Source of the DNA: Escherichia coli
GTDB lineage: Bacteria; Pseudomonadota; Gammaproteobacteria; Enterobacterales; Enterobacteriaceae
Direction: 5' to 3' (one strand)
Length of the DNA stretch: 64,000 nucleotides
NCBI RefSeq assembly: GCF_030013205.1
Contig: NZ_CP122648.1
Shown: piece after piece, positions 47,345 through 52,579 of the stretch
Numbering within the stretch: the stretch's first letter is position 1
How the letters are laid out: every line of letters starts with the position of its first letter
Notes under the pieces: generated by a model
Database searches by the model: none
Told to the model about the DNA's origin: nothing
Seen by the model: only the letters and a program-made list of their open reading frames with translations
Translations under genes and position numbers: made by a program

Positions 47345-47818
47345 ATGAATATGGCAGCACCAAAGGGCAACCGATTTTGGGAGGCCCGCAGTAGTCATGG
47401 GCGAAATCCTAAATTCGAATCGCCTGAGGCGCTGTGGGCTGCTTGTTGTGAATACTTCGAGTGGGTAGAAGCTAACCCGCTATGGGAGATGAAGGCATTC
47501 TCGTATCAGGGTGAAGTGATACAAGAGCCTATCGCCAAGATGCGAGCGATGACCATTATCCAAACCGTATGCCTGTTGGTAGCGGTAATCAGTTGGCGAA
47601 GTGGAACGGTTGGAGTTACTTCCAGCGAAAGGAACCTTGCGATAACGGGAGCGAATAATGCCGATTCAGCAACTTCCGCTCATGAAAGGTGTCGGAAAAG
47701 ACTTCCGAAACGCCGACTATATCGACTATCTGCCAGTGAATATGTTGGCTACACCCAAAGAAATCCTGAACAGCAGCGGATATCTTCGCTCATTCCCGGG
47801 CATTGCCAAACGTTCTGA
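47345..47818 (+). pseudogene. P22 gene 3-like small terminase, N-terminal ~70 codons only, fused to unrelated out-of-frame sequence
   Basis: [69 protein letters not shown] then diverges; overlaps the start of the gp10-like gene. Confidence 0.6.
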
Positions 47819-49076
47819 TGTGAACGGCGTATCGCGCGGAGTTGAGTACAACATGGCGCAGAGTGCTGTTTATCGCGTGTGTGGCGGCAAGCTGTACAAA
47901 GGAGAAAGTGAGGTCGGTGACGTCGCAGGAAGTGGTCGCGTATCAATGGCGCATGGTCGGACATCACAGGCGGTAGGCGTTAATGGTCAACTGGTCGAGT
48001 ATCGTTATGATGGCGCGGTCAAAACCGTCTCAAACTGGCCTACAGACAGCGGATTCACGCAGTATGAGTTAGGTTCTGTTCGTGACATTACGCGCTTACG
48101 TGGGCGTTATGCGTGGTCAAAAGACGGAACTGATTCATGGTTTATCACTGACCTTGAAGACGAATCGCATCCTGACCGTTACAGCGCACAATATCGTGCC
48201 GAGTCGCAGCCTGACGGCATCATCGGCATCGGAACATGGCGAGACTTCATCGTCTGCTTTGGTTCATCGACGATTGAATATTTCTCCCTGACTGGTGCAA
48301 CCACCGTTGGTGCCGCTTTGTATGTTGCACAGCCATCACTGATGGTGCAGAAAGGTATTGCTGGGACTTACTGCAAAACGCCATTCGCTGATTCTTATGC
48401 GTTCATCAGCAATCCGGCAACAGGTGCGCCGTCTGTATACATCATCGGCTCCGGTCAGGTGTCACCAATCGCCAGCGCGAGCATTGAGAAAATCCTCCGC
48501 TCCTACACTGCTGATGAACTGGCTGATGGCGTGATGGAATCGCTGCGGTTTGATGCGCATGAGTTGCTGATTATCCATCTTCCGCGCCATGTCCTCGTGT
48601 ACGACGCATCTTCAAGCGCCAATGGTCCGCAATGGTGTGTGCTGAAAACAGGCCTGTATGACCATGTGTACCGCGCTATTGACTTCATTTACGAAGGCAA
48701 TCAGATAACGTGCGGCGATAAGCTGGAGTCTGTTACCGGGAAATTGCAGTTCGATATATCTTCACAATACGAAAAACAACAAGAGCATATTTTATATTCC
48801 CCTCTAATAAAGGCAGATAACGCTTTAATAAATGACCTTGAATTAGAAACATCTGGCGGCGTGTGTGATAGAATAGATAAAATATTTATATCAGCCACTA
48901 CAGATGGAATTAGTTACGGTCGTGAGCAAATGGTCGTATTACAAAAACCATTTGTATATGAAAATCGCGTTTTATGGCGAAAGGTTGGTCGAGTTAGACG
49001 CCTCATTGGATTTAAATTCAGAGTTATTGCAAAAGGTCCTGTCACATTATCAGGCCTTTCTATTCGTGTAACATAA
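47658..49076 (+). CDS. P22 gp10-like tail accessory / head-completion protein
   Basis: 472 aa, [49 protein letters not shown]...; same length as remembered P22 gp10. Confidence 0.75.
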
Positions 49077-49097
49077 ATCGAAACTCAAGGAGTAGAT

Positions 49098-49631: not shown

Positions 49632-50055
49632 TTCGAATCTCAACACCCCTGTTATTGTGCAGGCTACGCGGCTCGATACATCAATACTTCCACGCAATAT
49701 CTTCTCGCAGTCGTATCTGCTTTACGTTATCGCACAGGGCACTGATGTTGGTAACGTGGCTAACAAGGCCAACGAGGCCGGACAGGGCGCTTATGATGCA
49801 CAGGTCAGGAACGATGAGCAGGATGTGATTCTGGTCGATCATGAAGAAAGAATTCGTCAGCTCCGCATTGAAGTAGATGACCATGAAATCCGTATTGCTG
49901 CGAATACTGCGGCAATTGCAGCGCTGGATGTCAGACTAACCACGGCTGAAGGAGAAATAGTCACCTTACAGGCTGACGTCAGCGCTCTTGATGGCCGGGT
50001 TCCCGAGAAATACAAAGAGCAGAATTACAAGAAAAGGCTCTGGACAGACAGATAG
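49624..50055 (+). pseudogene. P22 gp26-like tail needle, N-terminal ~120 codons then frame-disrupted
   Basis: [43 protein letters not shown]...SALDGRV then unrelated tail and stop. Confidence 0.65.
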
Positions 50056-50582
50056 CCAGAGAAAGCAATCAGTTAAAGCTCGAAGAGCTAAAACAGAAAC
50101 AGGCAGATGTTCGGCAAAAGGCTGACATAGCCCGCGCTGACAGGCAGGCCGCCGCTCAGGGTGCGGTTGATACGTTCAGCACCGCGCTTGATTCTCTCAA
50201 CGAGACAGAGCAAAGCCCCGGCCTTTCAAAAGCAGTAGGAATTCGCTCAGCGTTTCCGACAGTTCCTGGCTCTGATGCGGCTAACTTTGAAGCAAGACTC
50301 GACACCTTTAAAGCTCAAACTTTCCTCCCTATGGTGCAGTCCCTGAAGGGGATGGGGGCTCTTTCAGATGCTGAGGGTAAAAAATTATCTGATGCGGTTG
50401 GTGCTCTAAGTCCCAAAATGAGTGAAAAGGCTTTTCGTGACTCTATCGGAAAGATTCGAAATCAGCTTGAAAGCAAGTTGAGCACTGTTAAAAAACAGTT
50501 TGATTATCAGGAGCCAGTACAGAATACGCCAGGGCAACAATCTACTACTGGCAGTAACTTTTCTTCACTATGGGGTGATTAA
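49992..50582 (+). pseudogene. C-terminal fragment of a phage ejection/injection protein (frame open without start codon)
   Basis: Frame open from the stop at 49989-49991 to 50582 (…[42 protein letters not shown]…SSLWGD), ending in ATGA overlap with the next gene; no plausible start. Confidence 0.4.
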
Positions 50583-52579
50583 TGGCTAAAGCATGGAAAG
50601 ATGTTATCGCCTCTCCACAGTATCAGGCGTTAGCACCAGAACAAAAAGCGCAGGCTCAGGAGCAATACTTCAATGAAGTCGTTGCCCCGCAAGCCGGAGA
50701 AAATGCAGAGCAGGCTAAGCAAGCTTTCTATGCTGCCTATCCATTGCCATATGTGCAGCAAGTGGAGACACAGCAACCAGTAGCACAGCAACAACCACAG
50801 CAAAGTGGATTTATGTCTGATCTTGGCGAAGCAGTAAAAGAGACTGGTCGCGGACTGGTGCAGGCTGGCGTGAACGTGGCAAACATACCTGCATCAGTTG
50901 CCGATGCTGTAACAAGCGCGGCGGCTTGGGCTGGCGGTAAACTCGGCATTGGCGATGGTACATATCAACCAGCGCCACGTGTAACAACGCAGGGATTAGA
51001 GCAGGACTTTGGCCTTCAGCAAGGCGCGCTGACTCCACAAACGACAGAGGGAAGGGTATTTGCTGAAGCATTGCCTTACCTCACTCCTGCTGGCGTTGAG
51101 AGAGCGGCAGCACAGGCACCAACACTTGCTGGTCGAATTGCTCATGGGGCAACTCGCCTTCTAGCAGAAAACGCAGTTGGATCACTTGCTGCAAATAGTG
51201 CGAAAGATGATGCGGAAGCACTCGCCACCGATTTGGGCGTTGGTGTGCTGGCTGGCGGTGCTATTAACGCTGCCGGACGTGGATTAGGTGCTGCTTATCG
51301 TGGAGTTCGTGGTGCTATTGCGCCAGAAGCGCAGCAAGCTATCAGATTTGCAGAGCGTGAAGGAGTGCCTCTGCACACCACAGACATGTTACAGCCTACT
51401 TCCCGCGTCGGAAAAATGGCGCAAACGACAGCAGAAAATATCCCCCTGGCGGGCACAAGCGGAATGAGAGCAACGCAACAGGAAGCGAGAAGCCAGTTGG
51501 TTCAGAGATTTGCTGATAAATTCGGTGAGTATGATCCAGCGGTTGTTATTGACAGCCTTAAAGCGAAAACATCAGGAATTCGTCGCGCTGCAGGAAATCG
51601 ACTGGAGCAGGTTCAGAATGCTATGGCGGGAATAAACATTCAGCCTGCAAGAGCAATTCAGCAGATTGATACAGAAATATCTAACCTGCAGAAGCTTGGT
51701 AAGGTTGCTGATAACGAGACTATTTCAAAACTTCAGTCCTATCGTGATGAGCTTGTTCGCAATGCTGGTCCTGATGGTCCGGTAAATCTGGATTTGAAGC
51801 AATTAAGCGATCTGCGCAGCCAGTTCAGAATGGACGTGAAGGGTGAGCGACCAGTGTTACCAAACCGTTCCGATGCTGCAATTCAGCGCGTTTACAAGGC
51901 AATGACCGACGATATCAATGGTGCCATTGGTCAGAATCTTGGCAACGATACTCTCCGTAAATATCAGCAGGCCAATGCCGTCTACGCTGACGAAGCCGCG
52001 AAACTAAAGAATACCAGGCTGAAGAATGTTCTCATGAAAGGCGATCTGACGCCGGAAGTTGTCAACAACATGCTATTCAGCAAGAACAAATCGGAAATTA
52101 AGACGCTGTATAACTCAGTTGGTCGTGTTGGCAGGGCGCAAATGCGCAATGGCATCATTGGAAAGGCGATGGAGAAATCTGGCGGATCCCCTGACCAGTT
52201 CCTTCGGCAGCTTAACATCCTGCAAAACCAGACTGGCATCACATTTAAGGGGCAGGACGCTGCTTATCTGAAAGGATTAAAAAACTACCTGCAATCTACG
52301 CAGCAGGCTGCAAAAGCGGCAGTAACAACACCCACAGGGCAGCAAACTATCCCGTTCATTATTGGGTATGGGACGGCAATGAACCCTGCGACAACTGGCG
52401 CAGCAGTAAGCTACGGACTTCTTACTCGCGCCTATGAGAGCGAGCCATTCAGAAATGCAATGCTCAGAATGGCAAACACCCCACGCGGATCAACAGCGTT
52501 TGAGAAAGCCATGCAGCAGGCACAAAAGGCAATTAACGCTCTGACGCAGGGGGCTAAGTCTGATGCGTTGTCAGAATAG
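50582..52579 (+). CDS. P22 gp16/gp20-like DNA ejection (injection) protein
   Basis: 665 aa Gln/Ala-rich protein located between the needle fragment and mnt, where P22-like phages carry ejection proteins. Confidence 0.55.
   Translation: MAKAWKDVIASPQYQALAPEQKAQAQEQYFNEVVAPQAGENAEQAKQAFYAAYPLPYVQQVETQQPVAQQQPQQSGFMSDLGEAVKETGRGLVQAGVNVANIPASVADAVTSAAAWAGGKLGIGDGTYQPAPRVTTQGLEQDFGLQQGALTPQTTEGRVFAEALPYLTPAGVERAAAQAPTLAGRIAHGATRLLAENAVGSLAANSAKDDAEALATDLGVGVLAGGAINAAGRGLGAAYRGVRGAIAPEAQQAIRFAEREGVPLHTTDMLQPTSRVGKMAQTTAENIPLAGTSGMRATQQEARSQLVQRFADKFGEYDPAVVIDSLKAKTSGIRRAAGNRLEQVQNAMAGINIQPARAIQQIDTEISNLQKLGKVADNETISKLQSYRDELVRNAGPDGPVNLDLKQLSDLRSQFRMDVKGERPVLPNRSDAAIQRVYKAMTDDINGAIGQNLGNDTLRKYQQANAVYADEAAKLKNTRLKNVLMKGDLTPEVVNNMLFSKNKSEIKTLYNSVGRVGRAQMRNGIIGKAMEKSGGSPDQFLRQLNILQNQTGITFKGQDAAYLKGLKNYLQSTQQAAKAAVTTPTGQQTIPFIIGYGTAMNPATTGAAVSYGLLTRAYESEPFRNAMLRMANTPRGSTAFEKAMQQAQKAINALTQGAKSDALSE

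Follow-up and report, generated by a model that had tools for sequence, protein, structure and literature searches.

A defective P22/Sf6-like prophage remnant at the argW attachment site of Escherichia coli and its deletion junctions

Gene content of the locus

The window analysed here is a stretch of 64,000 nucleotides of E. coli DNA. An Sf6-type att core lies at both ends of a prophage-like element within it, with intS and torI at opposite ends, as found in argW elements of the IntS/TorI type (Sf6, HK620 and CPS-53). The features of the element are as follows (coordinates in the window; strand; description).

46709-46723; no strand; attL core TGGTGTCCCCTGCAG, left prophage end; matches the annotated Sf6 attP core (18099-18114), and the Sf6 match begins at 46709; arm shared with K-12 CPS-53 pawZ/torI, 97.9%
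46797-46997; minus; torI / excisionase (recombination directionality factor), intact; PGAP name; 46709-47106 = Sf6 18100-18497, 97.5%
47171-47173; no strand; J3 junction, shared TAA; early-left gene fragment joined to codon ~9 of an orf59c homologue
47351-47558; plus; small terminase (P22 gene 3 type) stub, codons 1-69; 97.4% to P22 41461-41668; PGAP partial, C-terminus missing
47556-47558; no strand; J1 junction, shared TTA; three-way alignment and HSP coordinates; LR-50 2176-9000 lost
47557-47658; plus; gp4 (head-tail adaptor) 3' fragment, last 33 codons; = LR-50 9002-9103; PGAP gp4 family, N-terminus missing
47658-49076; plus; gp10 homologue (packaged-DNA stabilisation / head closure), intact, 472 aa; PF11134, phrog_578
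49098-49631; plus; predicted free-standing HNH homing-endonuclease gene (NUMOD4 + HNH_3 + HTH); Pfam and PHROG matches
49624-50001; plus; tail needle (gp26) stub, codons 1-126; 95.8% to LR-50 10520-10899; PGAP C-terminus missing
50000-50001; no strand; J2 junction, shared TT; three-way alignment
50001-50582; plus; gp20-type ejection protein, C-terminal 193 codons only; phrog_2534; PGAP 'acyltransferase', partial
50582-52579; plus; gp16-type DNA transfer/ejection protein, intact, 665 aa; phrog_770; length equals Sf6 gene 13
52669-52929; minus; mnt-like repressor (Arc family), intact, 86 aa; Pfam Arc and Repressor_Mnt; PGAP
53065-53734; plus; tailspike N-terminal part (P22-type head-binding domain and start of receptor-binding domain); PF09008; colinear with EC571 residues 1 to ~223
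53735-54502; minus; IS1, 768 bp, 8-bp target duplication CAATTTGA, splits the tailspike gene; EC571 empty site; PGAP IS1 transposase
54503-55790; plus; tailspike C-terminal receptor-binding part; colinear with EC571 tailspike
55862-58500; minus; gtr O-antigen modification operon; PGAP on identical sequence; low G+C, 34-36%
55862-56791; minus; glycosyltransferase of the gtr operon; PGAP
56802-58133; minus; DUF2142 GtrC-type gene of the gtr operon; PGAP
58141-58500; minus; gtrA; PGAP
58651-59808; minus; integrase intS, intact; PGAP; 90.7% to K-12 CPS-53 intS arm
59969-59983; no strand; right att core (hybrid); EC571 match stops at 59988; second element from 59989, where argW is expected

Homologues of gp3, gp4, gp10, gp26, gp20 and gp16 follow one another in the order of the Lederbergvirus late operon (BLASTN against P22, Sf6 and LR-50; Pfam and PHROG profiles). 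The complete gene set of a functional phage is not present, as gp3, gp4, gp26 and gp20 are truncated and multiple modules are absent; the element is a remnant rather than a phage. PGAP (RefSeq) already marks the gp3-, gp4-, gp26- and gp20-type fragments as partial pseudogenes. A tRNA-Arg lies directly beyond the right att core in the sibling strain EC571, and no tRNA was found past this core in the present window.

Three junctions join distant segments of a P22-like genome

At J1, window 47171-47558 corresponds to P22 41281-41668 at 97.4% identity (BLASTN). Against the 167-position profile phrog_606, small terminase residues 1-69 cover positions 3-72, and PF16677 (GP3_package) spans residues 17-69 only. 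The match to P22 is lost after 69 codons (208 nt from the start at 47351), in line with the first-pass annotation of this DNA, which placed the loss at about 70 codons. From 47556 on, the sequence is the last ~100 nt of gene 4, followed by gp10, of the intact E. coli P22-like LR-50 prophage (L005 9001-10269, 93%). The earlier view that the terminase runs into the region just upstream of gp10 was thus right about the break, but that region is the 3' end of gene 4 and not merely upstream sequence. At the joint, codon 69 of the small terminase is followed by the 33 final codons of gene 4, and the small terminase frame continues out of frame to a stop at 47818. The loss amounts to ~6.8 kb, comprising the rest of gene 3, large terminase, portal, scaffold, coat and most of gp4. 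Large terminase, portal, scaffold and coat had already been reported missing; they are indeed absent here, and the flanks of J1 lie ~6.8 kb apart in an intact genome.

At J2, window 49622-50001 matches the LR-50 needle (10520-10899, 95.8% identity), whilst window 50000-53402 matches LR-50 13096-16496 (96.5%) and window 50000-52649 matches Sf6 10975-13624 (97.4%). Needle residues 1-127 align with positions 1-127 of 233 in phrog_1219, and the frame that follows aligns with positions 242-435 of 435 in phrog_2534, the gp20 family (E=6e-84); this fragment aligns to Sf6 gene 12 from nt 10975 at 97.4%. The needle had been proposed to break after about 120 codons, near 49991, and to be joined to the C-terminal part of an ejection protein. 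The actual break is at 50001 (codon 126), only a few codons away, and the joint is to codon 239 of the gp20-type protein, out of frame, with the needle frame reaching a stop at 50055. Around 2.2 kb is lost: the needle tip and C-terminus, gp14, gp7 and gp20 codons 1-238 (the N-terminal part).

J3, overlooked at first pass, is the largest of the three deletions, with ~18-20 kb gone. Its left parent (the P276M prophage, L007) matches through 47173 and its right parent (P22 41281 / Sf6 38868) from 47171, with no filler. The entire early, immunity, replication, nin and lysis region was taken out. This deletion removed the repressor/immunity, replication, antiterminator (gene 23 / Q equivalent) and lysis genes together with the late promoter.

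Junction anatomy and the origin of the deletions

Each junction joins segments that are colinear yet distant in intact relatives and that share two to three bases (TAA, TTA or TT). Three-way alignments showed no filler DNA, IS ends or mobile-element ends at J1, J2 or J3. All three junctions thus have the anatomy of microhomology deletions, with distant colinear flanks, no filler and between 1 and 10 shared bases. The first-pass annotation had suggested alignment to complete P22-like genomes and a search for microhomology; doing so mapped the breakpoints and revealed TTA at J1 and TT at J2. Clean joins of this kind are the signature of RecA-independent microhomology deletion. From junction anatomy only, we infer that the deletions may have arisen by such a route, through either slippage during replication or end joining at short homologies.

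Mosaicism is strong among P22-like phages, and the best relative of the window switches several times along its length (at the 3' end of gp10 with the HNH cassette, and for the needle and terminase types). The junctions might therefore be module-exchange boundaries of a functional, divergent P22-like phage with its genes intact. The alignments refute this reading, whose probability is close to nil. The flanks are 93-97% identical and colinear with, but ~6.8 and ~2.2 kb apart in, P22, Sf6 and LR-50. Profile matches halt in mid-family (72 of 167 and 127 of 233) and gp20 begins only at 242 of 435, showing truncation rather than divergence. The element lacks large terminase, portal, scaffold, coat, gp14 and gp7, as well as the early and lysis regions in their entirety, and the junctions occur in no phage record. 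Every other genome matches one side only of each junction, which argues against a natural mosaic boundary. As both fusions, at J1 and J2, are out of frame, they are pseudogenes and not new chimeric proteins.

Insertion sequences were also considered as the agents of deletion, either by IS1-type adjacent deletion or by recombination of one IS copy with another. IS1 is present in many copies in the strains, one of them in the tailspike gene 3.7 kb away, and the remnant of ETEC6333 and ETEC6334 contains an IS3-family insertion. Either process leaves an IS copy behind, however, and J1, J2 and J3 have neither an IS nor an IS end, nor filler. The tailspike IS1 is missing from 10 of the 17 genomes bearing the scars, and it retains an intact 8-bp target duplication, indicating that it did not mediate a flanking deletion. 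We therefore reject IS involvement as very improbable.

Distribution of the remnant

Of 5426 complete E. coli genomes, 17 carry J1 and J3 and 14 carry J2. The carriers are all from swine and include O139:H1 and ETEC strains. The junctions are not assembly artefacts, as the independent complete genomes that carry them (17 for J3 with J1, 14 for J2) are identical there. The 17 copies are essentially identical among themselves, and the present remnant shows 100% identity to the chromosomes of ETEC1748 and other E. coli from swine, O139:H1 among them; its source is a pig E. coli chromosome lineage. No near-identical intact version is present in the E. coli and phage collections, the best single intact reference being the LR-50 prophage (87-97% identity). 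Since the junction parents are mosaic relatives (87-97% identical), the breakpoints are fixed to within the microhomology whilst the exact content of the ancestor is not.

Taken together, these results make it very likely (probability about 0.93) that the locus holds a defective ("grounded") P22/Sf6-like (Lederbergvirus) prophage remnant at the argW att site, reduced from ~40 kb to ~13 kb by three independent illegitimate deletions.

Surviving genes and their likely activity

The first-pass annotation listed gp10, an ejection protein and mnt as retained, and profiles confirm that all are full length, the ejection protein being the gp16-type protein. The gp10 homologue matches PF11134 over positions 1-468 of 469 (E=1.4e-280) and phrog_578 over 1-469 of 486; the gp16-type protein matches phrog_770 over 3-666 of 668 (E=4.5e-239). 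The tailspike was also listed, and its gene is present but not intact, being split by the 768-bp IS1 at 53735-54502. The P22-type head-binding domain is complete (PF09008 Head_binding, positions 1-113 of 113, E=4.8e-67), and the C-terminal part gave no Pfam or PHROG family match. In siblings such as EC571 the tailspike is intact at 649 aa. The IS1 is a simple late insertion, given its intact 8-bp duplication and its presence in only 7 of the 17 remnant-carrying genomes. Also kept, and unmentioned at first pass, are int, xis/torI and the gtr operon.

The earlier statement that the remnant cannot produce particles agrees with the loss of packaging, head, tail, lysis and early genes, from which we infer that replication, lysis, packaging and particle assembly are all beyond the reach of the element. 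Having lost their native late promoter and antiterminator, the late genes that survive are probably silent. A crude consensus match found no convincing promoter-like site upstream of the late-gene stub, with three weak sites in 6.6 kb, fewer than in shuffled sequence. Judged on sequence, gp10, the gp16-type protein and the HNH gene are probably unexpressed passengers that decay has so far spared, whilst the gtr operon, int/torI and mnt are the parts with a plausible host-level function.

An HNH gene and reuse of the needle breakpoint

One gene that the first-pass annotation had missed, an HNH gene, separates gp10 from the needle. Its ORF (49098-49631) matches NUMOD4 (E=5e-13) and HNH_3 (E=5e-10) in Pfam. 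The gp10 and needle genes abut in P22, Sf6 and LR-50, where the HNH gene is absent. Among 5426 E. coli genomes, 35 have it at this position, and it occurs in no record of the phage collection. An 800-bp tract containing it is 100% identical to another prophage, whilst the flanks are ~95% identical. With nuclease and NUMOD domains, an intergenic insertion and a sporadic distribution, the ORF has the attributes of a predicted free-standing HNH homing endonuclease.

The Japanese strains EC556, EC571 and EC581 carry a second deletion, from the needle stub to mnt, with an identical left end at 50001|50002. Random illegitimate recombination does not account for two deletions that start at exactly the same needle position, which remains an oddity. 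It is highly unlikely, though conceivable, that this reuse reflects a targeted or structure-directed break, such as HNH nicking or a fork-stalling site; if so, the remnant would be a natural example of endonuclease-anchored prophage erosion. In the specific form in which 50001 is a targeted site, nicked or cut for example by the HNH endonuclease, that seeded both the needle-gp20 and needle-mnt deletions, the idea draws on the shared left end of two different deletions and on the HNH gene 370 nt upstream. We consider this form very improbable. The tract of 100% identity with the HNH-carrying prophage LCP17S3_I1 covers 48800-49600 (the gp10 3' end and the HNH gene) and ends upstream of the needle gene, short of 50001, which points to an HNH target upstream of the HNH gene; HNH cleavage as the cause of the needle break thus finds no support. 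Using an intact 241-nt needle segment centred on the J2 site as query, we found the site uninterrupted in 45 of the 62 genomes with the same needle type and broken only in the 17 of the present clonal lineage. An intrinsic hot spot is rejected on the same grounds. In its other differences EC571 shows the derived state when compared with outgroups, consistent with a secondary deletion within its sublineage.

The P276M prophage was also examined as a possible intermediate. It has an independent needle-gp20 fusion with other breakpoints (LR-50 11098|13052, 7-nt microhomology) at a different chromosomal locus, and is not an intermediate.

Order of events and significance

The three microhomology deletions (J1, J2 and J3) came first. 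A P4-like satellite then inserted in tandem at the att site, followed by IS1 into the tailspike gene, both as sublineage events, and the further deletion from needle stub to mnt occurred in the Japanese sublineage.

This is a decayed prophage of an ordinary kind and implies no new biology. A literature search did not find a paper on this particular remnant. Our analysis provides nucleotide-exact breakpoints and an event order for one more decaying prophage, with little import beyond annotation. The scars are lineage-specific markers, and J1 and J3 could act as clonal PCR markers as they are confined to 17 of 5426 genomes, all from swine. The case illustrates a well-known pattern in which conversion genes (gtr) and int/xis outlast virion genes.

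Comparison with known systems

CPS-53 (KpLE1) of K-12 shares the argW site, lying between dsdA/dsdC and argW. Like the remnant, it encodes the integrase IntS and the excisionase TorI and has an O-antigen glucosylation operon of gtr type beside int, and both are non-inducible remnants. The two elements are homologous in their arms, at 97.9% for torI-attL and 90.7% for gtrA-intS-att. By contrast, the interior of CPS-53 is unrelated, containing tfaS and yfdK-yfdT and no P22-type virion genes, whilst that of the remnant holds gp10, needle', gp20', the gp16-type protein, mnt and the tailspike. The locus also differs from K-12 in carrying a csc sucrose cluster in place of dsdC and part of dsdX.

In the Lederbergvirus genomes Sf6, P22 and LR-50 the late order is 3-2-1-8-5-4-10-26-14-7-20-16-(mnt)-9, followed by gtr/oac-int. 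The pieces of the remnant are colinear with this order at 76-97% identity, and its att core is that of Sf6. It differs from these genomes in the deletion of about two thirds of the sequence, two out-of-frame fusions, an extra HNH gene and the IS1 in the tailspike.

Prophage remnants of P22-like type bearing gtr are known in Salmonella, including Dublin (Davies et al. 2013, PMC3688519). There, as here, gtr and int outlast decaying virion genes, but the host, attachment site and GtrC type are different, that of the present remnant being a DUF2142 protein of predicted function.

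A P22/Sf6-like prophage remnant at argW

The phage-derived block lies in a neighbourhood that runs, left to right, from dsdA and a truncated dsdX through the csc sucrose cluster and the block itself to intS. Its left end, at 46709, carries an att core of the Sf6 type together with the excisionase gene torI, and a second att core lies at its right end near 59985. Both arms are homologous to CPS-53 (KpLE1), the cryptic prophage at argW in K-12 (97.9% and 90.7%), and in EC571, a sibling strain with the same remnant, tRNA-Arg, yfdC and mlaA directly follow intS. Together, the att cores, the arms and this gene order identify the block as what remains of a P22/Sf6-like (Lederbergvirus) prophage integrated at argW.

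Positions 46300-58500 showed 100% identity to the porcine E. coli chromosomes ETEC1748, 4067, 4069, 4070, 4071, 4079 and K_EC180. The O139:H1 strains W13-16 and P15-25 and several further swine isolates were also 100% identical over this span except for an IS1. Beside the prophage, within 40922-46499, the csc cluster (cscR, cscA, cscK, cscB) takes the place of dsdC and the 5' part of dsdX, and a 50-aa DUF4942 fragment (46347-46499) is found between cscB and attL.

Terminase, needle and gp20 genes are truncated rather than divergent

BLASTN against complete P22, Sf6 and the intact P22-like prophage of E. coli LR-50 produced a map that was colinear with these intact relatives but interrupted.

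Features of the remnant and their BLASTN matches in intact relatives
47171-47558: P22 41281-41668 (orf59c plus 208 nt from the start of gene 3), 97.4%
47556-48823: LR-50 9001-10269 (final 100 nt of gene 4, followed by gp10), 93%
about 48800-49621: putative HNH cassette
49622-50001: LR-50 10520-10899 (tail needle codons 1-126), 95.8%
50000-53402: LR-50 13096-16496, 96.5%
50000-52649: Sf6 10975-13624 (gp20 homologue from codon ~239, gp16 homologue and beyond), 97.4%

The first-pass annotation had proposed that the small terminase (gene 3) and tail needle genes are both broken, the needle running into the C-terminal part of an ejection-protein frame, with intact but divergent genes as the alternative. 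Both breaks were found: the gene 3 match stops after 208 nt, and needle codons 1-126 are followed by gp20 from codon ~239. In profile searches the terminase ORF covered positions 3-72 of 167 of phrog_606, the needle ORF positions 1-127 of 233 of phrog_1219 and the frame 3' of the needle break positions 242-435 of 435 of phrog_2534. These matches cover only part of each family and confirm the terminase, needle and gp20 pieces as truncations rather than divergent genes. NCBI's PGAP annotation of the identical sequence lists four partial pseudogenes, namely small terminase, gp4, a "phage tail protein" and an "acyltransferase" ORF; the last name is a misnomer for the gp20 C-terminus.

The genes listed earlier as retained proved full length for gp10 (472 aa; PF11134 positions 1-468 of 469), the gp16-type DNA transfer (ejection) protein (665 aa; phrog_770 positions 3-666 of 668) and Mnt (Pfam Arc and Repressor_Mnt), but the tailspike is split by an IS1 here.

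Three deletions with short shared bases at their joints

The junctions were examined by three-way alignment of the left parent, the window and the right parent, the parents being relatives that match the left and the right flank. J1, within gene 3, reads ...GACCATTA / TCCAAACC..., with TTA (47556-47558) common to both parents. J2, within the needle gene, reads ...GGCCGGGTT / CCCGAG..., with TT (50000-50001) in common. The microhomology that the first-pass annotation suggested looking for is thus present at both. A third junction, J3, lies just upstream of the interval beginning at 47345 that it described and had not been noticed. J3 reads ...GCTTCGATAA / GGAGAAG..., shares TAA (47171-47173) between its parents and links an early-left gene fragment just beyond xis with codon ~9 of the orf59c homologue.

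In intact-genome coordinates, J1 removed ~6.8 kb: gene 3 codons 70-162, large terminase, portal, scaffold and coat (all four correctly called missing before), a small ORF and gp4 codons 1-133. J2 removed ~2.2 kb, comprising needle codons 127-233, gp14, gp7 and gp20 codons 1-238. The J3 loss was the largest (~18 kb on the P22 map, 20 kb on that of Sf6) and took the whole early and lysis region: the genes for recombination, immunity, replication and lysis, nin, the antiterminator and the late promoter. Neither gene fusion keeps the reading frame, gene 3 continuing for 86 nonsense codons to a stop at 47818 and the needle for 17 codons to a stop at 50055, which marks them as pseudogenes rather than chimeric proteins.

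No filler bases or IS ends were seen at J1, J2 or J3 in the three-way alignments. From these clean, IS-free joints with 2-3 nt of microhomology we infer illegitimate short-homology deletion, in which replication slippage or microhomology end joining would produce deletions at the 2-3 nt of shared bases.

The scars mark one swine lineage

A probe spanning J3 and J1 was matched over its full length in 17 of the 5426 complete E. coli genomes searched, and every one of these came from swine; the remaining 2456 genomes with a match had one side only. A J2 probe gave full, unbroken coverage in 14 of these 17. Their occurrence in independent complete assemblies shows that the junctions are real and did not arise during assembly. 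None was found in the phage records of the collection searched and, being lineage-specific, they do not represent mosaic joints of a circulating phage.

In the Japanese swine strains EC556, EC571 and EC581, the needle stub ending at 50001 is instead joined to 52672, just inside the mnt stop codon, and 50002-52671 (the gp20 C-terminal fragment and gp16-type gene) is deleted. In EC571 this join (L008 9119-9125, equivalent to window 50001 and 52672) lengthens the annotated mnt-like ORF (294 nt vs 261 nt). A second deletion starting at random would fall within the 3 nt of the J2 joint with a probability on the order of 3 in 5300. Of three explanations tested, a general hot spot at 50001 was rejected: the site is continuous in 45 of 62 genomes with the same needle type, and the 17 broken ones all belong to this lineage. 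Cleavage by the HNH gene product found no support, as the identity tract shared with LCP17S3_I1, another HNH-carrying prophage, lies upstream, short of the site. As for the order of events, comparison with K-12 and LCP17S3_I1 shows EC571 to be derived at 58523 and 59372, the two of its other differences with outgroup sequence. This weakly favours the needle-mnt join as a deletion that arose later, in a J2-type ancestor; none of the three explanations accounts for reuse of the joint to the nucleotide.

The unrelated human isolate P276M carries an independent needle-gp20 fusion (L007 8743-10053), located in another P22-like remnant, at sbcB-dacD. Its breakpoints (LR-50 11098 joined to 13052, with 7-nt microhomology) differ from J2, and its gp16-type gene also has an internal deletion. 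This fusion shows only that the needle-gp20 part is repeatedly lost from such remnants.

Later insertions

The tailspike-splitting IS1 (768 bp, 53735-54502; 8-bp target duplication CAATTTGA) is present in 7 of the 17 genomes, the window included; in sibling strains such as EC571 the tailspike is an intact 649-aa ORF. In 8 of the 17, a second element, followed here from 59989 to 64000, is integrated in tandem at the argW att site and pushes argW beyond the window end. Its MazE/MazF-like toxin-antitoxin pair, P2-family major capsid gene and ogr/Delta-like zinc-finger gene point to a P4-like satellite. In ETEC6333 and ETEC6334 an IS3-family element lies within the HNH gene.

The receptor-binding part of the tailspike (54489-55790) matched no Pfam or PHROG family, and the adjoining gtr operon (55862-58500) encodes a GtrC of the DUF2142 type and is very poor in G+C (34-36%). 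These features suggest a foreign-derived module for O-antigen specificity.

A defective prophage with an HNH gene

Judged by its gene content, the remnant cannot replicate or lyse, and it can neither package DNA nor build heads and tails, in line with the earlier view that it produces no particles. The late promoter and antiterminator are absent, and a consensus scan found no promoter-like site upstream of the late-gene stub (its three weak hits in 6.6 kb were outnumbered by those in shuffled sequence). The simplest reading of the intact gp10, gp16-type and HNH ORFs is thus that they are passengers which decay has not yet reached. The gtr operon, int/torI and mnt are plausibly the parts still of use to the host. 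Taken together, the earlier observation is confirmed and its interpretation supported, with refinements: this is an ordinary defective prophage whose pseudogenes were already flagged in RefSeq, and what the analysis adds is the position of each breakpoint to the nucleotide, a third deletion larger than the other two, and the sequence in which later events took place.

The HNH gene (49098-49631) is a free-standing ORF of the homing-endonuclease type, with NUMOD4, HNH_3 and helix-turn-helix domains. Over an 800-bp tract (48800-49600) that takes in the 3' end of gp10 together with the HNH gene, identity to LCP17S3_I1 is 100%, against ~95% in both flanks, a pattern that fits a homing cassette with its co-conversion tract. 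The gene appears in no record of the phage collection and occupies this position in 35 of the 5426 E. coli genomes. In P22, Sf6 and LR-50, gp10 and the needle gene abut with no HNH gene between them; here it lies precisely at their boundary.
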